IMG/VR virus record: IMGVR_UViG_2609459800_000001
Source of the DNA: a virus
Lineage: Duplodnaviria > Heunggongvirae > Uroviricota > Caudoviricetes
Reading direction: 5' to 3' (one strand)
DNA: 64,000 bases
The translations under genes and the position numbers were made by a program. Under the pieces are notes generated by a model that was not told the origin of the DNA, made no database searches, and saw only the letters and a list, made by a program, of their open reading frames with translations. Positions 1,592 through 44,266 of this stretch are shown piece by piece; position 1 is the first letter of the stretch, and each line of letters opens with the position of its first letter.

Positions 1592-1621
1592 GACCGTTTT
1601 TATAATGCGGTCAGGAGTTTT

Positions 1622-7996: not shown

Positions 7997-7998
7997 AT

Positions 7999-9505: not shown

Positions 9506-9581
9506 GGCCCTTTAGCTCAGTGGTTAGAGCTGGCGACTCATAATCGCACGGTCACCGGTTCAAGTCCGGTAGGGGCCACCA
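9506..9581 (+). tRNA. tRNA with CAT anticodon (Met or lysidine-modified Ile)
   Basis: Cloverleaf by hand: acceptor GGCCCTT/AGGGGCC, anticodon loop CTCATAA, T-loop GGTTCAAGTCC, encoded CCA. Confidence 0.75.
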
Positions 9582-23639: not shown

Positions 23640-23642
23640 ACC

Positions 23643-24521
23643 GTGAGTATGCATCAAGTCGTCAGCTTTTCAGGTGGACGAACATCGGCTTATCTCGTTC
23701 ATCTGATGGAAGCACAGCGAAAAGCTGGCGCTAGCGTCCATTTCATTTTTATGGATACCGGCTGTGAACATCCTCTGACGTATCGCTTTATTCGTGAGGT
23801 TGTGAAGTTCTGGAACGTACCGCTAACGGTGTTGCAGGTCGATATAAATCCAGAACTTGGGCAGCCAAATGGTTATACGGAATGGGAACCAAAGGATATT
23901 CAGACGCGAATGCCGGTGCTTAAACCGTTTATGGACATGGTTAAAAAGTACGGTACGCCATACATCGGCGGCGCGTTCTGTACCGACAGGCTAAAACTCA
24001 CCCCTTTCACGAAATATTGCGATAACCATTTCGGGCGAGGTAATTACATCACATGGCTGGGTATTCGTGCAGACGAACCCCGTAGGCTGAAACCGAAATC
24101 GGGCGTCCGGTATCTTGCCGAGCTGTCAGATTTTGATAAGTCGGATGTTATCCGGTGGTGGCGAAAACAACCTTTTGATTTGCAAATCCCGGAGCATCTC
24201 GGGAACTGTGTTTTCTGCATCAAAAAGTCAACGCAAAAGCTGGGGCTTGCATGTAAAGACGAACCAGGTCTGATGCGAGTTTTTAATGAGCTGGTTACAG
24301 GCAAACACGTCAGGGATGGTCATCGCAGAACAGGTAAAGACGTTATGTACCGTGGTCACCTGACGCTTGACGGGATTGCCAGAATGTATGCCGACAGCGA
24401 CTACAGAAATTTGTATCAGGCGATGGTGCAGGCCAAGCGGTTTGATACTGGTTCGTGTTCCGAATCATGTGAAATCTGGGGTGACCAATTGGAGTTGAAA
24501 TTCGAAGAGGTAGTGGCATGA
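23643..24521 (+). CDS. PAPS reductase / PP-loop ATP-pyrophosphatase family protein
   Basis: ORF track 292 aa; PP-loop SFSGGRTS near N-terminus. Confidence 0.55.
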   Translation: MSMHQVVSFSGGRTSAYLVHLMEAQRKAGASVHFIFMDTGCEHPLTYRFIREVVKFWNVPLTVLQVDINPELGQPNGYTEWEPKDIQTRMPVLKPFMDMVKKYGTPYIGGAFCTDRLKLTPFTKYCDNHFGRGNYITWLGIRADEPRRLKPKSGVRYLAELSDFDKSDVIRWWRKQPFDLQIPEHLGNCVFCIKKSTQKLGLACKDEPGLMRVFNELVTGKHVRDGHRRTGKDVMYRGHLTLDGIARMYADSDYRNLYQAMVQAKRFDTGSCSESCEIWGDQLELKFEEVVA

Positions 24522-24721
24522 CAATCGTAAAAACCCATACCGGTACCGTGATCACCAAAGATGGCCCGCAGGTAAAAAAATTGCACCAAACAGAGCGGAT
24601 GTGGGTCGTTGGCAAAAACGAGTTTTACCACAAAGAAACTGGACGCCGCCATTTTGCAGAAAATACGCGCCGCCGACTGCTGTTAGACACCATCAAGCCT
24701 ATCGAGGTGAAGCATGTTTAA
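24518..24721 (+). CDS. hypothetical protein
   Basis: ORF track 67 aa; ATGA overlap with previous gene. Confidence 0.35.
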   Translation: MTIVKTHTGTVITKDGPQVKKLHQTERMWVVGKNEFYHKETGRRHFAENTRRRLLLDTIKPIEVKHV

Positions 24722-24953
24722 ACAGAACGAAAAAGCTATCGCTCAAATTGCTGATTATATCCCGCGTGCGTGCCGGGGTATGCAGTTGCAGGAAGCCAAA
24801 GCGCGCCTGGAGAAAAAAATTGCGCTCTATATTGATGACGGCTGTGATGCCGCCGTTCTTAACGAGGCGTTCGCACCAGCTCTTAACAGTCATACTCGGG
24901 AGTCTTTTTTTTCGTGCATCGCAGCGCAACTCCACCAAGGAGGCAACCAGTGA
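24714..24953 (+). CDS. hypothetical protein
   Basis: ORF track 79 aa; overlapping junctions. Confidence 0.35.
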   Translation: MFKQNEKAIAQIADYIPRACRGMQLQEAKARLEKKIALYIDDGCDAAVLNEAFAPALNSHTRESFFSCIAAQLHQGGNQ

Positions 24954-25699
24954 GCAAGATTGACTATCAGGTACTGCGTGAGGCGGCAGAACGTGCAATT
25001 CCGGCAATGGAACGCCTGTTAATGTTGCCAGTTGATGATGATTTGTTAACTGAACAGGAACTTAAGGATTACGGTGTGGATATTGATGCGCTCAACGCCT
25101 TCAAATTTCTGACCGGACCAGAAACCGTGCTGGCGCTGCTGGATGAACGGGAAAGAAACCAGCAATACATCAAAAGCCGTGATCAGGAGAACGAGGATAT
25201 TGCGCTAACGGTAGGGAAGCTGAGAGTTGAGCTTGAGGAAGTAAAACAACACGCTGAAGAATTATCCGAAACCAAGGCTGTTCGTAACCAATGGCGGCCA
25301 GATATTTGCCCAATAACCGGACGTGCATTTTTCATGTGGATTGAGCATCCAACATTGGGAAATGTGCCGACATATGGTGGCCCATTAGATAGTTACACCA
25401 TTCCAACAAAGGACGGTGACGGTGAGTTTTCATGTGAGCGTTACGATCATGATTTTGGCGGTTGGGTAGAAAGCGAATGTCTTGGGTTATATCTGATTGA
25501 TGATAGAGAACAATGCAGGGTCTACGAACTGGAGGAGCGCGTTAAGGAACTGGATGCTCGGGAAATATCGCTCCCGGAACGTAGCAGCATGCTTCATCGA
25601 ACAGATTTTCACGATGATTACCAAACGGTAATGGCATACAAAGTTTCTGAAGTCATCGATGCAATCCGCGCTACTGGCATTCGCATCAAAGGAGAGTGA
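24950..25699 (+). CDS. hypothetical protein
   Basis: ORF track 24914..25699; start set at GTG 24950 with AAGGAGG 7-9 nt upstream, overlapping previous stop. Confidence 0.4.
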   Translation: MSKIDYQVLREAAERAIPAMERLLMLPVDDDLLTEQELKDYGVDIDALNAFKFLTGPETVLALLDERERNQQYIKSRDQENEDIALTVGKLRVELEEVKQHAEELSETKAVRNQWRPDICPITGRAFFMWIEHPTLGNVPTYGGPLDSYTIPTKDGDGEFSCERYDHDFGGWVESECLGLYLIDDREQCRVYELEERVKELDAREISLPERSSMLHRTDFHDDYQTVMAYKVSEVIDAIRATGIRIKGE

Positions 25700-25700
25700 T

Positions 25701-26216
25701 ATGGCGTTAACACACCGCGAACTCTGTCAGATTGCGTACAAGTTCCTTAAGCGCAACGGGTTCAAGGTTTGTTTTCATGACCGCTTTATAGCTGTAACCA
25801 GTACCGGAGAACAGCCAGATGCTATGGGATTCAGAAATTCAGCATCATGCCTGATAGAGGCGAAGTGTTCTCGTGCTGACTTGTTAGCAGATAGAAAAAA
25901 GCGTTTCCGTAAAAATCCGTCTCTTGGAATGGGCGACTGGCGATTCTTTATTAGTGAGCCGGGAATTATTTCAATTGAGGATTTACCACCTGGCTGGGGA
26001 TTACTTCACGTTGTTAACGGAAGAGTACGGAAAGTACATGGATGGCCCAAGGGGAATTGCTGTTGGGGTAACCCTGAAGATAAACCTTTTATTGGGAATA
26101 AGCAGGTTGAATGCGATTACATGTTATCTGCATTAAGGCGCATGGAGTTGAGAGGGCACCTTAATGAAATATATGACGGTGTAATTGTTAATAAGAAAGA
26201 AGGAAACGCGGCATGA
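25701..26216 (+). CDS. hypothetical protein, possible PD-(D/E)xK nuclease-like
   Basis: ORF track 25659..26216; start at ATG 25701 after AAAGGAGAG; PDAMGF...IEAKCS. Confidence 0.35.
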   Translation: MALTHRELCQIAYKFLKRNGFKVCFHDRFIAVTSTGEQPDAMGFRNSASCLIEAKCSRADLLADRKKRFRKNPSLGMGDWRFFISEPGIISIEDLPPGWGLLHVVNGRVRKVHGWPKGNCCWGNPEDKPFIGNKQVECDYMLSALRRMELRGHLNEIYDGVIVNKKEGNAA

Positions 26217-26599
26217 TCACTATTACCAAAGAGCGACTGCTGACAATCAAGCAGTGGCGCGAAACATACGGACCTGGTAGCAACGTTGTACTGCCAGCAG
26301 AAGAAGCGGAAGAACTGGCACGAATTGCTCTGGCATCACTGGAAGCAAAACCAATAGGTGCATTCCACATTGCAGAACAGCAAGTTGACGGCACAAGTGA
26401 CCACCTCAAGGATGGAGAATGGCCTATTGATAATGGAATTATTGAGGTCTACGCCACTCCCCCCGTTCCAGTAGTACCGGAAGAAAAACCAATGCCTAAT
26501 CCTCTTAGCATGTACGCGGTCGATGCTGTTGCCGCTATTGCAGAGGTGAGAGGCTGGAACGCCTGCCGTGCCGCTATGCTTCAGGGGAAAGGAGAGTGA
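26213..26599 (+). CDS. hypothetical protein, paralogous to N-terminal part of 26809 gene
   Basis: ORF track 128 aa; shares IALASLEA and GWNACRAAMLQ with next large ORF. Confidence 0.4.
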   Translation: MITITKERLLTIKQWRETYGPGSNVVLPAEEAEELARIALASLEAKPIGAFHIAEQQVDGTSDHLKDGEWPIDNGIIEVYATPPVPVVPEEKPMPNPLSMYAVDAVAAIAEVRGWNACRAAMLQGKGE

Positions 26600-26600
26600 T

Positions 26601-26798
26601 ATGGACAAAAACACACCTGCTTACTGGAGTTTATCACTTGATACTGAATGCCCAAAATGCGGCCACAATTTCGATCTGCTTTGTGATGCTGATTTCTGGG
26701 AATTTTCTGGAGCAAAACAGGCATGTGAAGAAATAAAAGGTTACGAAACATGCTGCCCAGAATGTAACCATGAATTTAAAACAGATTTTGTGTATTGA
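26601..26798 (+). CDS. small Cys-rich zinc-ribbon-like protein
   Basis: ORF track 26568..26798; start at ATG 26601 after AAAGGAGAG; CPKCGHNF...CCPECNHEF. Confidence 0.4.
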   Translation: MDKNTPAYWSLSLDTECPKCGHNFDLLCDADFWEFSGAKQACEEIKGYETCCPECNHEFKTDFVY

Positions 26799-26808
26799 GG
26801 CATAACGA

Positions 26809-28008
26809 ATGACCACTTTTACTAAAGAACAATTAATAGAGATAATTAAGCGCAATATAACGGTTATGGATCGTTATCCTGATTTAGTAACTGCACAAAT
26901 GGATCTGGAAGTATACAAAATCGCGCTGGCATCACTGGAAGCAGAACCAGTTGCTTATATTTTCAAACATCCGGCCGGGAAATTATTCTGGGCTTTAACG
27001 GATGAAAGCAATAAAGAGCAACCGGACGTTATTCCTGTTTATGCTGACTCACCTGCGCCGGTTGTGCCGGATGAAATAGACGTAAACGATGTACCAAGGG
27101 CGGTGACATATTTCAAGACACACAGAGATTGTTACGCAGATGGCTGGAACGCCTGCCGCGCCGCCATGCTTCAGTCCGGAAACTTTCGGGAAAACAAGAA
27201 TTCGTCAACCAATAATTTTCGGGAAATCGCGGAAACGTCAACCAACTATCCGGTAATTCCTAGTGAGGTGTTGTCCGCAATCCTGAAGGTTGCCAAGATT
27301 CGTGCCGATTTCGATGATTTTGACGGTGACAGGCGAGGTATCGGTGATTGTCTGGATGAGGCTGAGCAAGAGCTTATCGTTACCATTAACAAATATGCCA
27401 GTCAGTTGGCAGCAGAACCGATAGCGACTAATGACGTTCGAGAGCAAACAGCCGTTCCGCCAGTTCCTGTAATACAGGCTGATGTCGCGCAGGCAATTGA
27501 AAAACTCAAACGGAAATTAGTGGAATGCAATCGCTATAACTACTGTGCAGATGCAGTTAAAGGCGTAGAGGATGCCTGCCGTGCTGTTAGCTATAGCCAA
27601 GCCGACAATCAGCCAGCATCTGGCAACCAGGCTGCCGAATCCAATCGCGATAATGAGTGGACTGGCAATCCTGATATTGATAACGCCATCATCATGCTCG
27701 ACCGCATAGATACGCTGGAAAATTGCGATGATGACCGTATTGAGGCTGTTAAGGCTGTTTTGCGTAGACTGGCTGGCAACTATCCGGTAACTCCGGATGG
27801 TTGGATAAGCTGTAGTGAGCGAATGCCGGATACCAAAACAGCCGTTCTTGTTGCCGTGGAGTTTGACAGGAAAGGTGACTGGCGAATGAAATGGGCGACT
27901 TACATCCCGGGGCATCCTGACGCTAATGATGGGTGGATAATTCCTGGTGCGTCGTGGAAACCGTCACACTGGATGCCGCTACCAGAACCGCCGCAGGAGG
28001 CAAAATGA
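26809..28008 (+). CDS. DUF551-domain protein
   Basis: ORF track 399 aa; C-terminal DGWISCSERMPDTKTAVLVAV...DGWIIPGASWKPSHWMPLPEPP. Confidence 0.5.
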   Translation: MTTFTKEQLIEIIKRNITVMDRYPDLVTAQMDLEVYKIALASLEAEPVAYIFKHPAGKLFWALTDESNKEQPDVIPVYADSPAPVVPDEIDVNDVPRAVTYFKTHRDCYADGWNACRAAMLQSGNFRENKNSSTNNFREIAETSTNYPVIPSEVLSAILKVAKIRADFDDFDGDRRGIGDCLDEAEQELIVTINKYASQLAAEPIATNDVREQTAVPPVPVIQADVAQAIEKLKRKLVECNRYNYCADAVKGVEDACRAVSYSQADNQPASGNQAAESNRDNEWTGNPDIDNAIIMLDRIDTLENCDDDRIEAVKAVLRRLAGNYPVTPDGWISCSERMPDTKTAVLVAVEFDRKGDWRMKWATYIPGHPDANDGWIIPGASWKPSHWMPLPEPPQEAK

Positions 28009-28265
28009 TGGATGTCAAAGAGAAGATTTTGCAGGTGATGCGTTCCCGTGCAGCCCTGCAAGAGAAAGTTCTCGGCGGGGAATATCCATTCAGGATGGCA
28101 ACCTGGAGTCTGCGGTTGGCAATGGAGAAGGAATTTCCTGATGAAGAATGGCGTTCGGCAGATTTGCGCAAAATTCTTATGGAGATGGCTAAAGACGGAA
28201 CAGTATCCAAAGATACCTATGCCAGCCGGATTGGTCAGGCGGTATGGAGACTGGAGGTGAGGTAA
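28005..28265 (+). CDS. hypothetical protein
   Basis: ORF track 27933..28265; start at ATG 28005 after AGGAGG, overlapping previous stop. Confidence 0.4.
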   Translation: MMDVKEKILQVMRSRAALQEKVLGGEYPFRMATWSLRLAMEKEFPDEEWRSADLRKILMEMAKDGTVSKDTYASRIGQAVWRLEVR

Positions 28266-28350
28266 TGAGCTGGCCTGAAGCATTCACCACGGTAGGAATC
28301 GCAATGGCGGTAGCACTGGTTTTGTATTCAATTTGTCGCTGGGGATAACG

Positions 28351-28584
28351 ATGGGAAAAATAACTTTTGTAGTCGAATTTGAGGATGGCAAAGAGCCACC
28401 TGTTAGCGCCAATCTTGATGTTGCTGGTGGCAGGCTTGTTTCGGTTCTATTTGGTGACTACCGAGATGATTTCTTCCAACCAGAAGAAGTTGATGTGGTG
28501 CGAGAGGCATTAAACGAGTTAAGTGTTGATAACGATGATGCTCATGCGGAAATCATCCAAAAAATGGAACTGCTAACTCACTAA
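28351..28584 (+). CDS. hypothetical acidic protein
   Basis: ORF track 28333..28584; second in-frame ATG chosen. Confidence 0.35.
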   Translation: MGKITFVVEFEDGKEPPVSANLDVAGGRLVSVLFGDYRDDFFQPEEVDVVREALNELSVDNDDAHAEIIQKMELLTH

Positions 28585-28762
28585 ATTATCAATTATGGTG
28601 CTATCACCTACGACACCGAGAGAAAATTTATAATGTCAAAAGTAAATGTTTTGATTTTTTCAGCAATTGTTGGCTTTGGTTTTACTGCCGGAGTGCAGAT
28701 TTATATTACGTGGGGAAAAATCATCAACTACGCATGGAGTTGTTTTATTAAGTGAGGTAAGT

Positions 28763-29056
28763 ATGTGGAGAGGTAATAATCATGGCAAAAGCCAGATGAT
28801 ACTTACCGAATATAAGCTAGACCACAAAACCAATAAATCACGCTCAGTATATTTGCTCCGGCACAATAGCCGTGTAAGAAATACCGTGTTGGAACAAAAT
28901 CTGACAGTTGAAATGGATAATTACGGGGGATTCAAGCCAACAATTTCGCTTGATGATTTTCCTCGTGGTTTAAGCGAAAGAGAAGCAATGCTGAAATTAG
29001 CAGAATGGCTACAAAGATTAAGCATTGCTATTGAAGATAACTGGTCTGAACCTTAA
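28763..29056 (+). CDS. hypothetical protein
   Basis: ORF track 28667..29056; start at ATG 28763 after GTGAGGTAAG. Confidence 0.35.
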   Translation: MWRGNNHGKSQMILTEYKLDHKTNKSRSVYLLRHNSRVRNTVLEQNLTVEMDNYGGFKPTISLDDFPRGLSEREAMLKLAEWLQRLSIAIEDNWSEP

Positions 29057-29062
29057 ATTAAT

Positions 29063-29437
29063 ATGATGACACTAAAACATTTTCTTGACCGCCCATTATG
29101 GGCGGCAGCCGCAGGCTATGACTTTAATTATATGGATTGCATGTCTTATGCTGCCAATGCATACGACCATTCGTTCAGCCTGCTGTTTAATTCTTTAAGA
29201 ATATTGCCGGAAACGGAAGTTGGAGAGCTTCATTTATGGATATTGGGCTTTATCGCGGCTGTCGTTGGTATTGCTGTATGGCCTTTTATTTTCTGGCTGG
29301 TGGCTGTTGTAGTGTGGTTTAAGTGCAAGACATACCGGAGAAAGTATTTCTTAGGTGATGGAATGACTGATATTGCCAAAATGAACATTGAAAAATGGAC
29401 TAAGGAATGTGAAAAGAAATGGCGCAAAAAGAAATGA
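29063..29437 (+). CDS. membrane protein
   Basis: ORF track 124 aa; hydrophobic stretch ELHLWILGFIAAVVGIAVWPFIFWLVAVVVWF. Confidence 0.4.
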   Translation: MMTLKHFLDRPLWAAAAGYDFNYMDCMSYAANAYDHSFSLLFNSLRILPETEVGELHLWILGFIAAVVGIAVWPFIFWLVAVVVWFKCKTYRRKYFLGDGMTDIAKMNIEKWTKECEKKWRKKK

Positions 29438-30099
29438 CTACTCTAACGACAGCATACTTACAGCAATTGGTATTTTTTGCAGGGGAGGCTACTTGTCATC
29501 CTGACGCAAACTATTTATTGGAATTTGAGAGGTTAGCGTCACCCGGTATCGTTCTGGAACTGGCCCAACAGGTGCTGACATTGAGACAAAAAGAGCAACT
29601 TGGAAGTGATGCTTACAAGTTAGATTTTGAGCAATGGCTTGAACAGCAACGCGGGAAAATAGATGTGGACTGTGGTTGTGTGTCCACTGAAACATTCATG
29701 CACTGGCTGCGGGTAGCTTACGAGGCTGGCAACTATCCGGATATTCCGGATAGTTCGGTGCCAGCGCCAGGAAAGGGAGTCACCGGTGAACGTATCCGCA
29801 TTAAGCCGCATGTTTATCGCGAACTGGTTAACCGCCTCCACGATACAGCGATCAAGTGTGCTGGCACCCAGCAATTACGAGAAAGAATTAGCCGTGTTTT
29901 GGGCGACGTTATTACGCCAGATCATCATAAACAAGCCGAGAAAAGTGACCTGGAAAGGTGTCACCTTGAGGCGGCATTAAACATTAAGCCGGGGCATACG
30001 CTTGGCATTATCGATGCTCTGTTGGTTCATAAGATGGCCAGGGCTTTATTGCCGCTGGTGGCTGATAAGCATGAGGCGGGCCATGCCAACGAAAGCTGA
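29419..30099 (+). CDS. hypothetical protein
   Basis: ORF track 226 aa. Confidence 0.4.
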   Translation: MAQKEMTTLTTAYLQQLVFFAGEATCHPDANYLLEFERLASPGIVLELAQQVLTLRQKEQLGSDAYKLDFEQWLEQQRGKIDVDCGCVSTETFMHWLRVAYEAGNYPDIPDSSVPAPGKGVTGERIRIKPHVYRELVNRLHDTAIKCAGTQQLRERISRVLGDVITPDHHKQAEKSDLERCHLEAALNIKPGHTLGIIDALLVHKMARALLPLVADKHEAGHANES

Positions 30100-30364
30100 G
30101 TTACAGGCGCGCATAGAGATTCTTGAAAAAGAGAATGCGAGTCTAAAAGGAATGCTGGCGCGGGCGGAAAGGGAATTATCAGGCAAATTATTGCCAGAAG
30201 AACTGCCACCAGCAGATATACCAGATCGAGTGTCCCGGTGGATGAAGTCTTTTGGTTTGCCGTGGGAGGCTTTTTGGTGCTACGAGCATCGCAGATGGTG
30301 TGATGAACTTGATAGCAGTTTTCCCTACTTTGCGGAAGGGAATACTTGCCCTGAGTTGTATTAG
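30083..30364 (+). CDS. coiled-coil hypothetical protein
   Basis: ORF track 30002..30364; start moved to internal ATG (MPTKAELQARIEILEKENASLKG); N-terminus uncertain. Confidence 0.3.
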   Translation: MPTKAELQARIEILEKENASLKGMLARAERELSGKLLPEELPPADIPDRVSRWMKSFGLPWEAFWCYEHRRWCDELDSSFPYFAEGNTCPELY

Positions 30365-30969
30365 CTCAGATTTAACCTGACACAGCTACGGCACAGTTCT
30401 AAACCTAATCTGACAGGCCGCTTTGTGCCAAAAGCGGGCATTGGGCGTTGTGGTAAATGCCTGATAATTTCTTCTTTTACTAGCACAAGCCGCTGGATAA
30501 TTGCCATGTTTCCAGCTTAAGTAAATCAAGAACAACTCGCGTACTGGCTGTATAAAGTTTGCCGGACGCAAATTTATTGATTTCAGAAAAACCTGTTGAA
30601 ATAGAGGTATATCAGCGTTAGTTTGATGTGAGTAAAGATCAGGAAAGAAGGTAGAAAAATGTTCCACTTGCGGGCAAAAAATCCTTCTATTAAATTGTTA
30701 AGGCTTTATGAAGATCGTACATTACGAATCGAATTCACCATGGGTAGGGAACATGAAATGTCCAAACCCTAAGTGCAGGAGGAATGACTCCTGCTTGATT
30801 CGGGATAGGTTGTACTCGCATGAAGTATGTATTGGCTCTAAACCCAAATACTGGTGGCGTTTGGTCACAAATACCTTAACAAGTTTAGGTATGGGACGCT
30901 CCTAACGTCGCGCCCCTGCTAAAAGCGTTAGCTGTTCTCTAGCCTTCAACCAGATAAGGAAATAATCGT

Positions 30970-32400
30970 ATGAGTTCAGAATTGATTGCAAAACCTGGAA
31001 CAGGGGTACTTTCCACAGATACAACAAAATTTGAAGGATATTTATCCTATCTTGGTTTGCCGACCGAAAATATAATTGCCTCTCTCCCTGAGCGCCAAAT
31101 TATTGAAAAAAACCTCCCCACATTCATAGATTCTTTACCTGTTGAGGTAAAAAGAGATGCTCGATATTTATCAAAGTTCGTTGCTGGTGCGGCTATAGGA
31201 CTATTTGATGCATCGTTAAATTATGTTTGGAATGAAGTTGTACTGAATTTAAGGGAAAAAGTAGTAGTTTATGGCCTCGATATGTTCTTTGATGCTGCAG
31301 TTGGAGGAGGACGTAGAGAGCTTTATTCTACCGAAGAAGATCTTTCTGGTTTAAAAGACAACACCCTTATTAATACTTGCCGAAAACTTGAATTAATATC
31401 TGACGTTGTTTACACCAAGCTCAATCATATATTGACTATGAGGAATGACATTGGTGCTTCGCACCCAAATTCATACTCCATAAATGCTTTTGAACTTCTT
31501 GGCTGGCTCCAAACATGCGTTCAAGATATTTTGAACGACAAACCGTCCGCGTCTGCCATACAAATAAAATCATTCCTTGAGAATCTAAAAAGATCCACTG
31601 ATGTTCTTGATGAAGCCACAATTCATAGCATGGAAAGACCTTTGAATGATCTGTCGCTTCAGAATACAGACAATCTACTCAATAGTATTTTCGGCATATA
31701 TACAGCTGACTCAACAGGAAATGTTGTCAGAAAAAATATCGCTCTTTTTGCTCCGCATATCTGGAATAAAAGCAGTGATAACGTAAAATACAAGCTCGGT
31801 GTGACGCTAGACGGATACAAGAACAATCTTCACAACGAGAAACATGCTTTAGGTATTGAGTTTTTTACGTTTTGTGATGGTAATCGTTATCAATCATTAG
31901 ACTCTAGAATTATATCACTGGACGGCCATGCCGACGATCTCTTAGAGGCTAGGTATGCTTGGGATAACTTTTATAATGAACCCCCTCATATGCGGAAGAT
32001 TCTTTCGTATTTAAAGACTGAAAATGACATACCTTTAGAGAGGGTTCATAAGCTTATAAAAACAGTTTTGATTTGCCGTGTTGGTAAAGGAATACCATAT
32101 AATACTGGTGTTTCTCCGGCGGGACGACCTTTGTATGATCAGTTTTTTGGCATGCTTGGCGATCAAAACATTATCAATACAGTTATAGCAATGCACTCTA
32201 ATGAAGTGCGAGTGAATTTAGACAACAAATACTGCCAGCAACATATGGTAAGCGTTTTGACTTTGTTAAGAGCCAATGCTCGTAGCGAAAGAATTCAAGA
32301 AATTATAGATTTTTTGATCGCCAACCAAACGATTCTCCATAAAGTACACAACGATAAGAGATATAGAGATCTAACTAAAAATCACATCAGTTTTGGCTAA
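30970..32400 (+). CDS. AT-rich accessory protein with Rx6H (HEPN-like) motif; candidate abortive-infection/defence protein
   Basis: ORF track 476 aa; visibly AT-rich, N/K/I-rich codon usage in a ~50% GC backbone; TMRNDIGASHP fits Rx4-6H; AT-rich promoter-like upstream region. Confidence 0.45.
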   Translation: MSSELIAKPGTGVLSTDTTKFEGYLSYLGLPTENIIASLPERQIIEKNLPTFIDSLPVEVKRDARYLSKFVAGAAIGLFDASLNYVWNEVVLNLREKVVVYGLDMFFDAAVGGGRRELYSTEEDLSGLKDNTLINTCRKLELISDVVYTKLNHILTMRNDIGASHPNSYSINAFELLGWLQTCVQDILNDKPSASAIQIKSFLENLKRSTDVLDEATIHSMERPLNDLSLQNTDNLLNSIFGIYTADSTGNVVRKNIALFAPHIWNKSSDNVKYKLGVTLDGYKNNLHNEKHALGIEFFTFCDGNRYQSLDSRIISLDGHADDLLEARYAWDNFYNEPPHMRKILSYLKTENDIPLERVHKLIKTVLICRVGKGIPYNTGVSPAGRPLYDQFFGMLGDQNIINTVIAMHSNEVRVNLDNKYCQQHMVSVLTLLRANARSERIQEIIDFLIANQTILHKVHNDKRYRDLTKNHISFG

Positions 32401-32582
32401 CAAAGCGCTGCACACGGACTAAATTAAGCTTCGCTCACTGGGGCGGGCGACAGCCCGTCCCTTAACCAAACGTTAATGTCCGCTTCTCGCTCAAAGCAGA
32501 CTGTCAGATTTGATTGTGTGCTGCCAGTGAAAACTGTCAGATCAAGTCTGAGCTAATACACCTGAGTGTAGGAGGTAGCGCG

Positions 32583-32843
32583 ATGTTTCGTCCTCGTCCA
32601 ATACCGCCGAAACTAACTAATGGCTATCAGCCGAATACTCCAGAAATACAAGGGAGCGAGGGGCTTAAACCACCACCAGCACCACGTATTCCGCCTGTAG
32701 CAAGGAACGTATCATTACGACGAGAGTTAATATTAGCCTTGTCGCCCATTCTGGCTGCCCGCCAGGATTGGGTAAGTAATGATGAACTGGCAGAAAAAAT
32801 CACATCGCTGGTGGATAAAATTATGGATAAAGCTGATATCTGA
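32583..32843 (+). CDS. hypothetical Pro-rich protein
   Basis: ORF track 32514..32843; start at ATG 32583 after AGGAGG. Confidence 0.35.
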   Translation: MFRPRPIPPKLTNGYQPNTPEIQGSEGLKPPPAPRIPPVARNVSLRRELILALSPILAARQDWVSNDELAEKITSLVDKIMDKADI

Positions 32844-32888
32844 TCACCATGCTAAAATCCCCTCAATTCACAGAGGGGATTTTTGTAT

Positions 32889-33155
32889 ATGTTGCATAGA
32901 GTTTTATGGAAATGCGGTATTGTCGGCGCGATGCTGGCTATATCTGGGTGTGCGATGGTGCAATACAATGACGGCGAAAAGGTAAGCATCCAGTCAGATG
33001 GCTGGTATGGACTGGATAGTCTGCAAAAAACCGCAGATAAAGCCTGTCAGCAATATGGGAAGTCTAAAGCTGTATATCAGCATAGCGCGAACGCTAACCC
33101 TCATCTTGCGCCCGGTTCGGGTGTTCAGAATACCATCTGGAAATGTGAGCCTTAA
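32889..33155 (+). CDS. putative lipoprotein
   Basis: ORF track 32883..33155; signal peptide with lipobox LAISGC. Confidence 0.5.
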
Positions 33156-33157
33156 AC

Positions 33158-33409
33158 ATGAGCGACTGGAATATTGCAGCTAAAAGTCAGGAAGAACGGG
33201 ATAAGGTTAACGTTGATCTGGCTGCCAGCGGTGTGGCGTACAAAGAGCGATTGAACATACCTGTCATAGCGGAACAGGTGGTCCGCGAGCAACCGGAGAA
33301 CCTGCGCACCTATTTCATGGAACGGCTACGGCACTACCGACAGTTAAGCCTCCAGTTGCCAAAAGGGAGCGATCCGGTGTATCAGAAAGAGGATGCGTCA
33401 AAAAAATAA
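33158..33409 (+). CDS. hot: homologue of DNA polymerase III theta subunit (HolE)
   Basis: ORF track 83 aa; [36 protein letters not shown] parallels HolE. Confidence 0.7.
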
Positions 33410-36204: not shown

Positions 36205-36221
36205 ATTGCTCTAATGTATTG
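36205..36221 (+). promoter_or_regulatory. C1 operator-like site upstream of lpa
   Basis: ATTGCTCTAATGTATTG, 14/17 to consensus. Confidence 0.5.
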
Positions 36222-36829: not shown

Positions 36830-38023
36830 GTGACCTGGGACGATCACAAGAAGAATTTTGCTCGCCTGGCGCGAGATGGTGGTTACACCATCGCACAGTA
36901 TGCCGCCGAGTTTAATCTTAACCCTAATACCGCACGTCGTTATCTCCGTGCCTTCAAAGAAGACACCAGGACAGCGGACAGCCGCAAGCCAAATAAGCCT
37001 GTCAGGAAACCACTAAAAAGCATGATCATTGATCACGCTAATGATCAACGTGCAGGTGATCACATTGTGGCTGAAATGGCTGAAAAACAAAGAGTTAATG
37101 CTGTTGTCAGTGCCGCACTCGAGAACGCGAAGCGCCAAAATAAGCGCATAAATGATCGTTCTGATGATCATGACGTGATCACCCGCGCCCACCGGACCTT
37201 ACGTGATCGCCTGGAACGCGACACCCTGGATGATGATGGTGAACGCTTTGAATTCGAAGTTGGCGATTACCTGATAGATAACGTTGAAGCGCGGAAGGCC
37301 GCGCGCGCTATGTTGCGTCGGTCCGGGGCCGATGTTCTGGAAACCACTCTTCTGGAAAAGTCTCTTTCTCATCTCATTATGCTGGAGAACGCCAGGGATA
37401 CGTGTATTCGCCTGGTGCAGGAAATGCGCGATCAGCAAAAAGACGATGATGAAGGTACTCCGCCTGAATACCGTATCGCGAGCATGCTAAACAGCTGTTC
37501 CGCGCAGATAAGCAGTCTGATCAACACCATTTACAGCATCCGGAATAACTATCGAAAAGAAAGCCGGGAGGCGGAAAAGCACGCTTTATCTATGGGGCAA
37601 GCTGGCATTGTTAAGCTGGCATACGAACGAAAGCGTGAAAATAACTGGTCAGTGCTGGAAGCGGCTGAATTCATCGAGGCGCATGGAGGAAAAGTGCCTC
37701 CCCTGATGCTGGAGCAAATCAAAGCCGATCTGCGTGCTCCTAAGACCAATACCGATGATGAGGAAAACCAAACAGCATCTGGCGCTCCATCACTTGAAGA
37801 TCTGGATAAAATCGCGCGAGAACGGGCCGCCAGCCGCCGCGCTGATGCCGCATTGTGGATTGAGCATCGTAGAGAAGAAATTGCCGATATCGTCGATACA
37901 GGTGGTTATGGTGATGTCGATGCGGAAGGCATATCAAACGAAGCATGGCTTGAACAGGATCTGGACGAAGACGAGGAGGAAGACGAAGAAGTTACCCGCA
38001 AACTGTACGGGGATGATGATTAA
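36830..38023 (+). CDS. pacA: terminase (pacase) subunit PacA
   Basis: ORF track 397 aa with GTG start; contains the TGATCA hexamer cluster typical of the P1 pac site. Confidence 0.8.
37023..37181 (+). other. pac packaging site (two clusters of Dam-site hexamers)
   Basis: TGATCA(N) at 37023, 37030, 37042, 37057 and at 37153, 37165, 37176; 4+3 arrangement over ~159 bp inside pacA. Confidence 0.8.
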
Positions 38024-39507
38024 TGGCCAGAAGTTGCGTAACGGACCCACGTTGGCGCGAGCTGGTGGCGCTATATCGTTATGACTGGATTGCGGCCGCT
38101 GATGTGTTGTTTGGGAAGACACCAACCTGGCAGCAGGATGAGATCATTGAGTCCACGCAGCAGGACGGCAGTTGGACAAGTGTGACCTCCGGCCATGGTA
38201 CTGGTAAATCGGATATGACGAGTATCATTGCAATACTCTTCATCATGTTTTTCCCCGGCGCTCGCGTCATTCTGGTCGCTAACAAAAGACAGCAAGTCCT
38301 TGATGGTATTTTCAAATACATAAAGAGCAATTGGGCTACTGCTGTTAGCAGATTCCCGTGGTTGTCGAAGTATTTCATTCTTACAGAAACGTCTTTTTTT
38401 GAGGTGACTGGCAAGGGTGTTTGGACAATATTGATAAAGTCCTGTCGCCCCGGGAATGAGGAGGCGTTGGCTGGTGAACACGCCGATCATCTCTTGTATA
38501 TCATCGACGAAGCGTCGGGTGTGAGTGATAAAGCATTCAGTGTGATAACAGGTGCGCTGACCGGTAAGGATAACCGTATTCTGCTTCTTTCCCAGCCTAC
38601 GCGACCTTCAGGCTATTTCTACGATTCACACCACAGACTAGCTATTCGCCCGGGAAATCCTGATGGATTGTTTACTGCGATAATACTGAATAGTGAAGAA
38701 TCTCCGCTTGTAGATGCAAAATTTATACGAGCAAAACTTGCGGAGTATGGCGGTCGTGATAACCCCATGTACATGATCAAAGTACGTGGTGAATTTCCCA
38801 AATCTCAAGATGGCTTTCTTCTTGGTCGTGATGAGGTTGAGCGGGCGACGCGGCGAAAGGTCAAGATTGCCAAAGGATGGGGCTGGGTTGCATGTGTTGA
38901 CGTTGCTGGTGGCACAGGACGAGATAAGTCCGTTATTAATATCATGATGGTGTCCGGCCAGCGAAATAAACGCCGTGTAATCAACTATCGTATGCTGGAA
39001 TACACAGACGTTACAGAAACGCAGTTAGCCGCCAAGATTTTCGCAGAATGTAACCCAGAACGGTTCCCGAACATAACCATAGCTATTGATGGCGATGGCT
39101 TGGGGAAATCGACGGCTGATCTAATGTACGAACGCTATGGCATTACCGTCCAGCGTATCCGCTGGGGTAAAAAGATGCACAGCCGTGAAGATAAAAGCCT
39201 TTATTTCGATATGCGCGCTTTCGCGAATATTCAGGCGGCAGAAGCTGTAAAATCAGGGCGTATGAGGCTTGATAAGGGGGCTGCGACTATAGAGGAAGCA
39301 TCAAAGATACCGGTAGGGATAAATTCCGCAGGTCAATGGAAGGTGATGTCAAAGGAAGATATGAAGAAAAAACTCAACCTGCACTCACCGGACCATTGGG
39401 ATACATATTGTTTCGCTATGTTGGCGAACTATGTTCCCCAGGATGAAGTGCTTAGCGTCGAAGACGAAGCGCAGGTTGATGAAGCTCTGTCATGGCTTAA
39501 TGAATGA
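38023..39507 (+). CDS. pacB: terminase (pacase) large subunit PacB
   Basis: ORF track 494 aa; Walker A-like GHGTGKSD; ATG overlaps pacA stop. Confidence 0.8.
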
Positions 39508-39510
39508 ACA

Positions 39511-39527
39511 TTTGCTCTAATGAATTG
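39511..39527 (+). promoter_or_regulatory. C1 operator-like site
   Basis: TTTGCTCTAATGAATTG, 14/17 to consensus, just after pacB stop. Confidence 0.4.
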
Positions 39528-39653
39528 TGTTTTTTAACTACCGATGTTACATTGAACCTGACCTCTTGCGCCTTGAGGCATTTTCGGTTTATGCTTATCA
39601 GGCACCTCATTAAAACGGGTGCCGGGATTGAGACCCCGGATAATGCAAAAGGC

Positions 39654-39686
39654 GACACAGACGCCAAAAGCGTCTTTTTTTGTGTC
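39654..39686 (+). terminator. rho-independent terminator (nested stems plus T7 run)
   Basis: GACACA-GACGC-CAAAA-GCGTC-TTTTTTT-TGTGTC. Confidence 0.6.
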
Positions 39687-39689
39687 ATG

Positions 39690-39860
39690 CCATCGCACAG
39701 CCATACGTAGCGTTTAGCTCAGAGATCAATGGTAGTGCTGGCTGGGCTGCCGAAAGGCAGGCCGGTTCCCTTTTGCGCCGGTAGTCTCAACCCAGTCAGT
39801 GCTACCGCCATTGAGATTGAGACCTCACGCGGTAGCTCCTTAAATTAGCAAAAGGAGGCT
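39690..39860 (+). ncRNA. candidate structured regulatory RNA / leader (C4-like?)
   Basis: ~170-nt noncoding stretch with multiple stems (GGTAGTGCTG vs CAGTGCTACC; CTGCC-GAAA-GGCAG); contains CCCTTTTGC complementary to the GCAAAAGG(A)GG RBS of the next ORF. Confidence 0.3.
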
Positions 39861-39866
39861 GCCATT

Positions 39867-40088
39867 GTGGCTACTATCCCTACCCCAACTCATCCTGAAT
39901 TTATCTGGCGCTTTTACTCCTGCCAGAAACGTCACTATCACTTCGTTATTGCACCGACAGAAGATGAGGCTCGCTCTCAGCTTCCGGATGCACCCTGTAT
40001 TTTCTCTGCCCGCTTTTCTACCGATTCGCGCAATTCTCTCAGTTACTGGAGCCTCCCTGTTAACGCTTCTGCTCAGGAGGGACTATGA
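39867..40088 (+). CDS. small protein overlapping antirepressor start (icd-like arrangement)
   Basis: ORF track 73 aa, GTG start after AAGGAGG; ATGA overlap with next gene. Confidence 0.4.
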   Translation: MATIPTPTHPEFIWRFYSCQKRHYHFVIAPTEDEARSQLPDAPCIFSARFSTDSRNSLSYWSLPVNASAQEGL

Positions 40089-41197
40089 GAACGTCATTAG
40101 TCACCCGTGAAGAGATGATCGAGGCAATTGAACAGCACACTGCCTGTATCAGTACCAGGGATATACCGGGCGTTATTGCCAACTACTTCATGATCACCAA
40201 ACAACTTTACCGGAGAAAGGACAAGAACTCGGTTCACCGCATTCTGCTAACCGATATCCGTGAATACCTGCTCGAACAGGGTCATCTGAATTACGCAACC
40301 GTCGCAGCCGAAGCACGCAAGGAGGCACACAGAATGAAAGCAACTAACGTTAAATCAGAAAAAATTTATGCACCTTCAGTTCAGGAATCGGAACTGGTGG
40401 TTGTTCAGAATCAGCCGGATGAAATTCCCGTTCTGGAATGGCAGGGAGTACGTGTCGTGACAACCGAAACTCTTGCTAGAGGGTATGGGGTCGATGAAGC
40501 CAATATTCGCAACAATTTGTCTCGCAACCTTGACCGCTTTGAAGAAGGTAAGCATTACTTTCTTCTAACTGGTTTAAAATTAAGAGAATTTAAGAACAGA
40601 GTAACCGGAAGTTACTCTGTTGGTAAGAACGCCAGAAGCCTTACACTCTGGACAGAGCGCGGCGCTGCACGCATGTCTAAGATCGTGGACACAAATGAAG
40701 CATGGGCATTCTTTGAAAAACTGGAAGACAGCTACTTCCGGCAAAAAGAACAGCAACCGGTTGCAATCCCCCAAACATTACCAGAAGCCCTACGCCTGGC
40801 TGCCGAACTGGCTGAACAAAAGCAGCTTCTGGAACAGAAAGCCCACCAGCTAAATCAGCAGCTGGTGGCCGCCGCTCCTAAGGTCGATTTTGCCGACCGG
40901 GTATCAGTAGCTAAAGGGATCCTGATTGGGAATTTTGCAAAGGTTGTTGGACTTAAGCAAAATGCGCTGTTTGCCTGGTTACGGGAGAACGGCATCCTGA
41001 TAGCGTCCGGTGGACGTAAAAATGTGCCGTTCCAGCAGTACATTAACGCCGGGTATTTCACGGTGAAAGAAGTGGTGCTGGATGATGAAGATGGCTACCA
41101 GATACGGTTGACGCCTCAATTAACGGGTAAAGGCCAGCAGTGGTTGACGCGTAAACTGCTCGATGCTGGCTTGTTAAAACCGGTGGCAGCTGAATAA
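40085..41197 (+). CDS. phage antirepressor (ORF6N-like N-domain plus KilA-C/Ant-like C-domain)
   Basis: ORF track 370 aa; N-terminal TETLARGYGVDEANIRNNLSRNLDRFEEGKHYF; C-terminal VDFADRVSVAKGILIGNFAKVVGLKQNALFAWLRENGIL. Confidence 0.6.
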   Translation: MRTSLVTREEMIEAIEQHTACISTRDIPGVIANYFMITKQLYRRKDKNSVHRILLTDIREYLLEQGHLNYATVAAEARKEAHRMKATNVKSEKIYAPSVQESELVVVQNQPDEIPVLEWQGVRVVTTETLARGYGVDEANIRNNLSRNLDRFEEGKHYFLLTGLKLREFKNRVTGSYSVGKNARSLTLWTERGAARMSKIVDTNEAWAFFEKLEDSYFRQKEQQPVAIPQTLPEALRLAAELAEQKQLLEQKAHQLNQQLVAAAPKVDFADRVSVAKGILIGNFAKVVGLKQNALFAWLRENGILIASGGRKNVPFQQYINAGYFTVKEVVLDDEDGYQIRLTPQLTGKGQQWLTRKLLDAGLLKPVAAE

Positions 41198-41202
41198 TGG
41201 AA

Positions 41203-41226
41203 GAATGCCCGGTTGATGCCGGGCAT
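41203..41226. terminator. bidirectional hairpin between convergent ant-like gene and c1
   Basis: ATGCCCGG-TTGATG-CCGGGCAT. Confidence 0.5.
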
Positions 41227-41229
41227 AAT

Positions 41230-42081
41230 TTATTGCGCGCTTTCGGGGTTGTCGTTTACTGGCTGCCCCTTCTTGGTTTTACGGCTGCGCGTAACTGATG
41301 CGGCTGACTTAACCTTTTTCTCTTCGCGAGTGATGGCAATTTGTTTTTTTACATTTTCAATATCTGCCAGGCGATATATTTTTGCTTGCGGCCAGCGGTC
41401 GCAGATGATCGGTTCTATGGAGTCATAAAGGCTAAATTTTGCTTTTTCGAATTCACCGTTGATGATAATTCCATCACGGAGAGTTTCATCGCAGATAAAC
41501 ACGCCACACAGTGGCACATGGTAACTAACTGATTTACCATCATTGTAGTTAGGGCTACTGGAAATGTAGTGGACGCGCAGCATTGTTTCGCTAAAGCCGT
41601 GTACGCGCATACGGAATTTTTCATCCTCCGGGTACTGCCTCATTAGCTCTTTTGTTGCTTCCAGGTTCTCTATGTATTTCGCACTGTGCTCATTGATCCC
41701 CGCGCTTTTTTGGATGCGAATGTCCTTATCAATCAGATGAATAATGCGGCCAGCGGTCATGTTGACGCTGTTCACAGCTTCTGTCTGATAAGTTGTAACC
41801 TTGCGCACACCGCGAAGGATGTTAGGCACTGGATATAAAATAGTCTTTGGGATATTGAGGTCTGGGTACTGTTCCAGTTCCCGCGCCATTAAAGTCCATT
41901 TATCAATTTCAGCCTGAATGCTGTCAGTTTCTTTGAACGGTAGAACGACAACCGGGCGTACAGGACGACCGTCGCTGGCTGTATCAACGTGTTGGGCGCG
42001 TGCAACAGCTTTTTTTAGAAAGAGATCCCTGAAGCTGACGAACTCCTGGTACAGTTGTTCGCCGTAGACATAATTTATCAT
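41230..42081 (-). CDS. c1: C1 repressor of lysis
   Basis: ORF track 283 aa MINYVYGEQLYQEFVSFRDLFLKK...; size and sequence recognised as P1 C1. Confidence 0.85.
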   Translation of the reverse strand: MINYVYGEQLYQEFVSFRDLFLKKAVARAQHVDTASDGRPVRPVVVLPFKETDSIQAEIDKWTLMARELEQYPDLNIPKTILYPVPNILRGVRKVTTYQTEAVNSVNMTAGRIIHLIDKDIRIQKSAGINEHSAKYIENLEATKELMRQYPEDEKFRMRVHGFSETMLRVHYISSSPNYNDGKSVSYHVPLCGVFICDETLRDGIIINGEFEKAKFSLYDSIEPIICDRWPQAKIYRLADIENVKKQIAITREEKKVKSAASVTRSRKTKKGQPVNDNPESAQ

Positions 42082-42191: not shown

Positions 42192-42401
42192 TTATTGTGA
42201 GTCTAACTGGTTAGTTGCCATGAGATATTCGATTGTGTCAGTGAGGTCATCCAGGTCGTCTTGGGTGATGCGGTACTCCTGATTGGATATCTTTGAGTAG
42301 TGTTCAGCAATGGCGCGGGCAGCGTCGGTTTCGGCAGGGTCTACAGATAAAGCGTTAGAGCAATGTCTAACGTCGTCGATGGTTGGTTGAATGAAAGCCA
42401 T
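42192..42401 (-). CDS. coi: C1 inactivator Coi
   Basis: ORF track 69 aa MAFIQPTIDDVRHCSNALSVDP... directly upstream of c1. Confidence 0.75.
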   Translation of the reverse strand: MAFIQPTIDDVRHCSNALSVDPAETDAARAIAEHYSKISNQEYRITQDDLDDLTDTIEYLMATNQLDSQ

Positions 42402-43234: not shown

Positions 43235-44266
43235 ATGTCTAATTTACTGACCGTACACCAAAATTTGCCTGCATTACCGGTCGATGCAACGAGTGATGAG
43301 GTTCGCAAGAACCTGATGGACATGTTCAGGGATCGCCAGGCGTTTTCTGAGCATACCTGGAAAATGCTTCTGTCCGTTTGCCGGTCGTGGGCGGCATGGT
43401 GCAAGTTGAATAACCGGAAGTGGTTTCCCGCAGAACCTGAAGATGTTCGCGATTATCTTCTATATCTTCAGGCGCGCGGTCTGGCAGTGAAAACTATCCA
43501 GCAACATTTGGGCCAGCTAAATATGCTTCATCGTCGGTCCGGGCTGCCACGACCAAGTGACAGCAATGCTGTTTCACTGGTCATGCGACGGATCCGAAAA
43601 GAAAACGTTGATGCCGGTGAGCGTGCAAAACAGGCGCTGGCGTTCGAACGCACTGATTTCGACCAGGTTCGTTCACTCATGGAAAATAGCGATCGCTGCC
43701 AGGATATACGTAATCTGGCATTTCTGGGGATTGCTTATAACACCCTGTTACGTATAGCCGAAATTTCTAGGATCAGAGTTAAAGATATCTCACGTACTGA
43801 CGGTGGGAGAATGTTAATCCATATTGGCAGAACGAAAACGCTGGTTAGCACCGCTGGTGTAGAGAAGGCACTTAGTCTGGGGGTAACTAAACTGGTTGAG
43901 CGATGGATTTCTGTCTCTGGTGTGGCTGATGATCCGAATAACTTCTTGTTTTGCCGTGTCAGAAAAAATGGTGTTGCCGCGCCATCTGCCACCAGCCAGC
44001 TATCAACTCGCGCCCTGGAAGGGATTTTTGAAGCAACTCACCGATTGATTTACGGGGCTAAGGATGACTCTGGCCAGAGGTACCTGGCCTGGTCTGGACA
44101 CAGTGCCCGTGTCGGAGCCGCGCGAGATATGGCCCGTGCCGGAGTTTCAATACCGGAGATCATGCAAGCTGGTGGCTGGACCAACGTAAATATTGTCATG
44201 AACTATATCCGTAACCTGGATAGTGAAACAGGGGCAATGGTGCGCCTGCTGGAAGATGGCGATTAG
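43235..44266 (+). CDS. cre: Cre tyrosine recombinase
   Basis: ORF track 343 aa MSNLLTVHQNLPALPVDATSDEVRKNLMDMFRDRQAFSEHTWKMLLSVCRSWAAWCKLNNRKWFPAEPEDVRDYLLYLQARGLAVKTIQQHLGQLNMLHRRSGLPRPSDSNAV...; recognised as Cre. Confidence 0.95.
   Translation: MSNLLTVHQNLPALPVDATSDEVRKNLMDMFRDRQAFSEHTWKMLLSVCRSWAAWCKLNNRKWFPAEPEDVRDYLLYLQARGLAVKTIQQHLGQLNMLHRRSGLPRPSDSNAVSLVMRRIRKENVDAGERAKQALAFERTDFDQVRSLMENSDRCQDIRNLAFLGIAYNTLLRIAEISRIRVKDISRTDGGRMLIHIGRTKTLVSTAGVEKALSLGVTKLVERWISVSGVADDPNNFLFCRVRKNGVAAPSATSQLSTRALEGIFEATHRLIYGAKDDSGQRYLAWSGHSARVGAARDMARAGVSIPEIMQAGGWTNVNIVMNYIRNLDSETGAMVRLLEDGD

Follow-up and report, generated by a model that had tools for sequence, protein, structure and literature searches.

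The window analyzed here is a stretch of 64,000 nucleotides (nt) from the IMG/VR virus record IMGVR_UViG_2609459800_000001 (Caudoviricetes). It comes from a P1-like phage-plasmid and is collinear with P1 from ~63.9 kb through the lox/cre end. P1 serves as a model for temperate phages, and resistance genes are spread among E. coli and Salmonella by phage-plasmids of the P1 type. Between the genes pacB and c1, homology to P1 ends at position 39509 and picks up again at 41231. The block in between (39510–41230, 1.72 kb) has no counterpart in reference P1, where the pacB–c1 gap is 24 nt. It contains an isrK-type leader RNA, a C4 antisense RNA, a homologue of the small protein Icd and an Ant1-type antirepressor (Table 1). 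The original prediction, made from the letters of the DNA, had described a c4-icd-ant-like arrangement, and this is borne out by the RNA, Icd and Ant matches and by the geometry of antisense and target. It had also called the location unlike that of immI in P1. Comparison of the gene order agrees, as P1 lacks these genes between pacB and c1 and carries immI between sim and kilA-repL. We read the block as a complete immI-type operon, in which an antisense RNA gates icd and ant, inserted between pacB and c1. Most likely it is a second circuit that is independent of the canonical immI. We put the probability of this reading at roughly 0.8.

The whole window was scanned against Rfam at gathering thresholds, and two matches, C4 and isrK, fall in the block. 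Both cover the full length of their models. The minimum free energy (MFE) of the C4 fold is −46.4 kcal/mol (z = −5.6), and none of 200 shuffled sequences folds as well. We aligned ten homologues (this window, RCS47, P1, D6, 673R5, the canonical copy of JL22, Stx2 F039, APSE-7, phiP27 and Kp4865-1). In this alignment 99.3% of the cells in the three-helix structure are paired, and 13 of the 27 pairs are changed on both sides; slid controls gave 31–51% paired. The noncoding stretch that had been described as highly structured is, by comparison with C4 in Rfam and by folding, a C4 RNA of conserved structure.

Two short elements of C4 are unpaired in the structure, b' in a hairpin loop and a' in the adjoining junction. 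Their exact complements of 8 and 7 nt each occur twice, and they are ordered as the annotated boxes a1, b1, a2 and b2 of P1. The gap between a1 and b1 is 10 nt (7 nt in P1), that between a2 and b2 is 24 nt (22 nt in P1), and b' and a' are 7 nt apart (6 nt in P1). Box b2 overlaps the Shine–Dalgarno (SD) sequence of icd. A 9-nt sequence had been proposed to be complementary to the ribosome-binding site (RBS) region of the small open reading frame (ORF); eight of its nine bases do pair, and the ninth is left unpaired. In the MFE structure of 39602–39880 a CUCCUU upstream of the icd SD pairs with it to form a local hairpin, whose loop takes in part of b2. The closing stem of C4 could also pair, through its 3' strand, with GCGGTAGC (39829–39836), and several homologues have this feature at the same offset. 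By analogy with the alternative structures described for Gifsy-1, such structures are possible around 39830–39860.

Table 1. Features of the pacB–c1 block and of its flanks (positions in the window)
Feature	Position	Strand	Remarks
C1-operator-like site TTTGCTCTAATGAATTG	39511–39527	+	First bases of the insertion; 14/17 match to consensus ATTGCTCTAATAAATTT
Candidate promoter	39525–39553	+	−35 TTGTGT (39525–39530), 17-nt spacer, −10 TACATT (39548–39553); by homology
Candidate leader promoter	39566–39595	+	−35 TTGCGC, 18-nt spacer, −10 TATGCT; by homology
isrK-type leader RNA	39602–39680	+	Rfam RF01394, 59 bits (gathering 50), model 1–77, full length
a1 TTGAGAC	39628–39634	+	Loop of leader hairpin 2; exact complement of a'
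b1 GCAAAAGG	39645–39652	+	Single-stranded linker before terminator; exact complement of b'
Leader intrinsic terminator	39659–39681	+	Stem 39659–39675 and T-run; terminator scan; 3' hairpin of isrK model
C4 antisense RNA	39725–39812	+	Rfam RF01695, 75 bits (gathering 45), model 1–87, full length
b' CCTTTTGC	39769–39776	+	Loop of C4 hairpin 2; unpaired in MFE and consensus structure
a' GTCTCAA	39784–39790	+	Single-stranded junction 3' of hairpin 2; unpaired in structure
a2 TTGAGAC	39817–39823	+	5 nt past C4 3' end; exact complement of a'
b2 GCAAAAGG	39848–39855	+	Overlaps icd SD; exact complement of b'
icd homologue, 73 residues	39867–40088	+	GTG start; SD GGAGG 39854–39858
Ant1-type antirepressor, 370 residues	40085–41197	+	Pfam ORF6N and ANT/KilAC
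Putative in-frame Ant2-type product, 287 residues	40334–41197	+	From Met84; SD AAGGAGG 40319–40325
Hairpin terminator between convergent ant and c1	41205–41226		9-bp stem, 6 G-C pairs; terminator scan
pacA	36830–38023		Flanking gene
pacB	38023–39507		Flanking gene, upstream of block
c1	41230–42081	−	Stop at 41230
coi	42192–42401		Flanking gene
cre	43235–44266		Flanking gene

IMG/VR was scanned with the C4 scaffold of the window, the loop being left free, and this gave 71 loci. These include many close relatives and do not represent 71 independent events.

The 73-residue ORF with a strong SD noted in the original prediction is confirmed as an icd homologue. It is 80% identical to P1 Icd (E = 6e-42), matches phrog_1426, and scores 49.8 bits against NCBIfam NF033153 (phage_ICD_like; cut-off 25). 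In 46 of the 71 related loci the start codon at the same position is ATG. The predicted overlap of its stop with the start of a 370-residue antirepressor is also present, as ATGA at 40085–40088, and is identical to the P1 overlap at the sequence level. The 370-residue ORF matches phrog_63 ('anti-repressor Ant', E = 1e-135) and is 57% identical overall to P1 Ant1 (E = 3e-131). This identity is unevenly spread: 64% in residues 1–84, 25% in residues 85–232 (ORF6N) and 86% in the C-terminal residues 233–370. The context of the putative internal start, AAGGAGGCACAcAGA-ATG (40319–40336), is near identical to AAGGAGGCACAtAGA-ATG of P1, which has t for c. The form AAGGAGGCACA(C/T)AGA-ATG occurs in 37 of the 71 loci, the remainder including some loci that end too early to show that stretch; it is missing with D6-type cargo. 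Three details of the P1 design are thus kept, namely the icd SD on b2, the icd/ant overlap and the context of the Ant2 start.

Every phage examined has its own a and b sequences, which are matched in C4 and in both sets of target boxes (Table 2), except for the b boxes of the 673R5 module. On the canonical scaffold there are at least five a/b combinations among P1, P7, JL22, 673R5 and D6. The canonical C4 of JL22 (43.4–43.9 kb) joins the a box of P1 to the b box of P7. In the 71 loci the b' alleles CCTTTTGC and CCTTTGAC and the a' alleles GTCTCAA and GTTCCAA are found in all four combinations. All four occur at the pacB–c1 site and at least three in D6 context. Boxes a2, b1 and b2 are cognate to the C4 of their own locus in 71/71 cases each, and a1 in 69/71; the two loci with a non-cognate a1 may be recombinants. 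The elements a' and b' lie 7 nt apart and assort freely, yet each matches boxes up to about 150 nt away, which argues for selection for pairing and not for linkage alone. A third C4 type, with a' AGGCCAA and b' CCTTGGAC, is present at the pacB–c1 site of 673R5 (29.9–37.7 kb of that phage). Exact b1 and b2 boxes were searched for in this module and were not found. In the 673R5 record c1, pacA and ant are split into fragments, possibly through sequence errors or because the copy is decaying.

Table 2. Target-box sequences of C4 loci
Locus	a box	b box
Window, JL22 module, D6 (75 kb)	TTGAGAC	GCAAAAGG
RCS47 module	TTGAGAC	GTCAAAGG
P1 canonical	TTGACAG	GTTAGTGA
P7 and RCS47 canonical	TTAGCAG	GATTGTGA
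JL22 canonical	TTGACAG	GATTGTGA
673R5 canonical	TTAGCAG	ACGAATGA
D6 (21 kb)	TTGACAG	ACTTACGA
Stx F039	TTAGGAC	CAATCAAGG
phiP27	TTGGAAC	GCTCAAGGA
APSE-7	TTGAGAC	CTAACAAGG
Kp4865-1	TTGAGAC	CTACAAAGG

These alleles bear on whether the module is a decaying passenger, that is, an inactive remnant of recombination with a D6-like plasmid prophage that has no present function. Over the leader, C4 and the 5' end of icd it shares 96% identity with D6, which shows a horizontal origin, and reference P1 lives without it. However, neither ORF is disrupted, the RNA pairs and the four target boxes contain no mismatch, and allele changes are compensated across the 71 loci. A complete module is found in about 315 PLSDB plasmids, and of 703 records containing pacB/c1 sequence about 314 have the contiguous P1-type pacB–c1 junction. 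Roughly one in two sequenced P1-like plasmids thus retains the module. We regard a functionless remnant as hardly credible.

Pairing energies calculated with RNAduplex separate the circuits. Cognate pairs range from −24 to −38 kcal/mol and are the strongest in every row. Cross pairs between the module C4s (window, RCS47, 673R5 and D6 at 75 kb) and canonical-type targets, in either direction, range from −11 to −19.5; over the whole matrix, non-cognate pairs reach about −25.5. In JL22, RCS47, 673R5 and D6 the two C4 RNAs of each genome are non-cognate. Since a' and b' of the window's module are unlike those of the canonical immI that its close relatives carry alongside their own module, the two circuits should not cross-repress.

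The closest relatives carry both loci. The module of JL22 is 98.8% identical to that of the window, with a leader that is 100% identical, and JL22 also has c4-icd-ant1-kilA-repL at 43.4–46.7 kb. RCS47 and 673R5 each have both the module and a canonical c4-icd-ant. Most of the best plasmid matches in PLSDB have at least two Ant-homologous places per record. On this comparison the pacB–c1 module is a second immI and not a relocated one, as judged for this genome from its relatives. The alternative is that the canonical sim-c4-icd-ant-kilA region has been lost here and that the module is the only antirepressor circuit of the element. It would fit the single C4 match in the window, which stops short of the canonical site (P1 48.1–49.7 kb). 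A few plasmid records have one Ant-homologous place (e.g., NZ_CP139810.1), and the published P1-like plasmid pJIE250-3 is without immI (PMC6906374). Against this, JL22, RCS47 and 673R5, the three sequenced phages that have the module, all retain the canonical immI, and nearly all of the closest plasmid matches have two or more Ant-homologous places. We find the loss of the canonical locus quite improbable.

The insertion begins with an operator-like site. We scanned the window for the C1 operator consensus ATTGCTCTAATAAATTT with up to three mismatches and obtained 16 matches, where 0.25 are expected by chance. On sequence, these sites are consistent with the dispersed C1 regulon of P1. They include matches at 3717, 7239/7250, 22866, 42640 and 61749, and one at 36205–36221 directly upstream of pacA. 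The candidate operator of the module has the orientation, and the position relative to the −35 element, of Op51/Oc4 in P1. Among the 19 related pacB–c1 loci with upstream DNA on record, a form with a 15/17 match, TTTGCTCTAATAAATTG, occurs in 12, the 14/17 form of the window in five and CTTGCTCTAATAAATTG in two. The hexamers TTGTGT and TACATT with their 17-nt spacer align column by column with P1 P51a (TTGTAT/TATCTT), which suggests an operator-overlapped promoter that is the counterpart of P1 P2c4/P51a. The second candidate promoter would put the start of transcription about 6 nt ahead of the 5' end of the isrK match. Its pattern, TTGCGC-N18-TAT(G/A)(C/T)T, is present in 61 of the 71 loci, D6 context included. 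A consensus promoter scan flagged only two sites, one where ant ends and the other TTGAGA-18-TAAATT (39817–39846, plus strand). The −35 element of the latter is the a2 box itself, and its transcript would begin within the icd SD. This match has probably arisen by chance, although it could yield an icd-ant transcript independent of C4.

The terminator of the original prediction is present, as the 3' hairpin of the leader. D6, RCS47, Stx phages, phiP27, APSE-7 and Kp4865-1 likewise have a member of the isrK family ahead of C4. By these matches the leader and C4 of the window are of the isrK/D6 type and not of the P1 type, and have another pairing specificity. The identity of the leader as isrK, the a'/a2 pair, the upstream a1 and b1 boxes, the operator-like site and the Ant2-type start go beyond what had been predicted.

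The mechanism that we propose is modeled by homology on immI of P1/P7 (GenBank annotation) and on the isrK locus of Gifsy-1 (PMC4825925). Complementarity, exposure of the boxes in the predicted fold, co-variation and gene overlaps are seen directly, and from them we infer processing, repression, titration and the target of Ant. One or two weak promoters directly after pacB would begin transcription, the candidate C1 operator overlapping the upstream one. The leader terminator would stop most transcripts, giving a short isrK-type RNA that displays a1 and b1. From transcripts that read through, C4 would be excised, by RNase P if the P1/P7 model is followed, as a stable RNA of about 80 nt, and its b' loop and a' junction would pair with a2 and b2 on the read-through messenger RNA (mRNA). 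Because b2 overlaps its SD, icd would then be untranslated, and ant would be silent too because its start sits on the icd stop. As in P1, an untranslated icd may also permit premature termination. The leader RNA bears the same two boxes and so could compete for C4; this competition would set a threshold, as IsrK does in activating translation of anrP in Gifsy-1. If C4 loses this competition or is missing, for instance after entry into a cell without cognate C4, Icd and Ant1/Ant2 would be made. Most likely, by analogy and given its P1-like N- and C-terminal parts, Ant would then inactivate the C1 repressor.

Several points weigh against this reading. The window begins at about 61.4 kb of P1 and so cannot show the canonical immI of its own genome. 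The operator of this window has three mismatches to the consensus, and the consensus scan flagged neither candidate promoter, both of which are weak. The middle third of Ant is unrelated to that of P1 Ant, and Ant could for this reason have another target. The homologous leader of Gifsy-1 is an activator that works via alternative mRNA structures (PMC4825925). Finally, transcription, C4 processing, repression and the interaction of Ant with C1 are all deduced from sequence.

The Gifsy-1 precedent has to be considered together with a 39-residue frame (39729–39848) that lies wholly on C4, ends before icd and has no clear SD. The annotation pipeline PGAP calls an 'ash family protein' coding sequence (CDS) at this position (e.g., WP_071527722.1 in NZ_CP142921.1). 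The translation matches Pfam PF10554 (Phage_ASH) at 29.1 bits (cut-off 26), and an NCBIfam search with it gave no match. The frame is closed in three of 13 homologues (P1, APSE-7 and Kp4865-1). In Stx F039, phiP27 and 673R5 it stays open and joins the following gene in frame. The data do not support a genuine protein gene: the frame is interrupted in homologues, and its peptides vary although the base pairs are conserved. On the sequence, an RNA gene that has been called as a protein is the likelier reading of this CDS, although the analogous orf45 of Gifsy-1 is translated (PMC4825925). The Phage_ASH family may largely be translated C4 RNA. Annotation pipelines place an 'Ash family protein' CDS over the RNA gene, or extend CDSs of Rha or other regulators across it.

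A switch of the Gifsy-1 type would work in the opposite sense. The leader, as the main regulator, would act in trans on the read-through mRNA to open a self-closed RBS, the 'Ash' frame would be translated and coupled to the genes downstream, and C4 would mainly fold in cis and not repress in trans. The leader does belong to the Rfam family isrK, and IsrK activates translation of orf45-anrP in trans (PMC4825925). The local hairpin over the icd SD fits a closed RBS, and the ORF, which has an invariant ATG, is open in ten of 13 homologues and ends here 18 nt before the icd start; its Pfam score is also above the cut-off. However, the three closed frames are stopped within the b' loop, the peptides diverge freely where the RNA pairs are kept, and the ATG has no convincing SD ahead of it and lies within the closing stem of C4. 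The ORF that is coupled to ant here is icd and not the 'Ash' frame, and C4 is an established trans-acting repressor in P1 and P7 (GenBank annotations). On balance we think an activator switch doubtful. It is partly compatible with the repressive antisense circuit that we favor, in which the leader may act as an anti-antisense RNA.

A further question is what Ant acts on. It could target the repressor of another resident element, or regulate through DNA binding, so that the module would serve cross-talk between prophages and not P1 immunity. The middle domain, 25% identical to P1 Ant, belongs to the ORF6N type that is common to many lambdoid antirepressors. In D6 an unrelated cargo of the Rha/KilA type follows this same front part of leader, C4 and icd, and the target of AnrP in Gifsy-1 is another phage function (PMC4825925). 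These points are offset by the P1-Ant-like N-terminal 84 and C-terminal 138 residues and by the dual Ant1/Ant2 start. P1-like Ant cargo goes with P1 context and D6-type cargo with D6 context, and a C1-type operator-like site heads the module. We therefore consider a target outside P1 immunity unlikely, and retain C1 as the probable target of a second immI.

The insertion between pacB and c1 had already been noted in 2019 (Venturini et al.), and for the D6-like plasmid pYU39_89 a second c4/icd region has been described (PMC6799933). Our literature searches for a published analysis of the pacB–c1 module gave a one-sentence mention only (PMC6906374), and no published treatment of its RNA layer, its allelic specificities or its orthogonality to the canonical immI was found in them. 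PGAP names the module proteins 'Icd-like' and 'antirepressor Ant', and some Stx and APSE records already annotate isrK, C4 and a'/b'. The module is a member of the known c4-icd-ant family at a non-canonical site, widespread and partly annotated. Its orthogonal, allelic RNA specificities are the modestly new part.

The module adds a switch beside the master repressor gene that is missing from the reference genome behind most thinking on P1 immunity. If this second circuit works, immunity, superinfection exclusion and induction would depend on two RNA 'locks' with exchangeable specificities, and these would bear on whether phage-plasmids coexist or displace each other. At least four allele combinations occur at the pacB–c1 site and at least five on the canonical scaffold. 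We tentatively suggest, at somewhat less than even odds, that P1-like phage-plasmids have two orthogonal circuits acting on one repressor, with a' and b' as combinatorial 'bar codes' of immunity. The resident C4 alleles would in that case set which P1-like and D6-like elements can superinfect, co-reside or induce. A phage with two modules would be immune to more relatives and would break the immunity of more lysogens, and the heteroimmunity of P1 and P7 would extend to a population-wide system of two loci.

The surrounding DNA offers a few side observations. The sequence ATGCCGG is common to the terminal hairpin of the module (41216–41222) and to the 24-nt pacB–c1 spacer of P1 (P1 93207–93231). 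It could be a deletion scar, the module having been lost from P1, or a coincidence; it is not decisive. Three segments of the window (1–2479, 23117–29717 and 30062–33162) have no megablast match to P1 44–94.8 kb. The first is at the plasmid replication end, and the other two lie between pmgT and hot/lxr; these are variable regions of P1-like elements. Three transfer RNA genes (7921–8071 and 9506–9578, plus strand) are at the positions of trnA, trnT and trnI in P1.

The module is most readily compared with immI of P1 and P7. The two have their parts in one order: a leader with a1 and b1, C4 with b' in a loop and a' in a junction, a2 and b2 at the icd RBS, a 73-residue Icd, the ATGA overlap of icd and ant, and nested Ant1/Ant2 starts. 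Ahead of these, P1 has a C1 operator and promoter, and the module has candidates for both. They differ in location, as immI of P1/P7 lies between sim and kilA-repL. The module leader matches Rfam isrK and not c4-a1b1. Its a box is TTGAGAC and not TTGACAG or TTAGCAG, and its b box is GCAAAAGG and not GTTAGTGA or GATTGTGA. The middle of Ant is swapped for an ORF6N domain, and icd starts with GTG.

The 75-kb module of D6 shares the leader, C4, boxes and 5' part of icd (96% identical) and the same a/b specificity, and D6 likewise has two c4-icd-ant modules of different specificities. Of these, the one at 19.3–22.7 kb has a P1-type leader, adjoins repL and carries Roi-type cargo, and the one at 72–78 kb has an isrK-type leader and Rha/KilA-type cargo. 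Unlike the module of the window, the 75-kb module has no P1-type C1 operator upstream, and its Rha/Roi/KilA-type cargo is unrelated.

The isrK-orf45(STnc1160)-anrP locus of Gifsy-1 also has an isrK-family leader with a terminator, read-through into a structured RNA, and an antirepressor that needs an ORF ahead of it for its translation, as predicted for ant (PMC4825925). In contrast to the module, it has no icd, and the C4-like region is overlapped by its coupled upstream ORF. In the published mechanism the short RNA activates in trans (PMC4825925), and the output is the AntQ antiterminator, encoded upstream; antQ has no counterpart here, where pacB is the gene upstream. Tandem isrK and C4 also occur in Stx-converting phages, phiP27 and APSE, with a and b boxes flanking C4 and b2 on the RBS of the regulated gene. 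In these phages C4 gates an antirepressor or Rha directly, with no icd, and the stems and a/b sequences have diverged. The likeness to the satellite phage P4, drawn by description (PMC4825925), has a different output: its CI RNA acts by premature transcription termination in replication genes, and not by a translational block on an antirepressor operon. The layout is nevertheless the same, in that an RNA processed from the leader of its own operon pairs with boxes upstream and downstream (CI RNA, seqA/seqC), and SeqA of P4 has been named a structural homologue of IsrK (PMC4825925).

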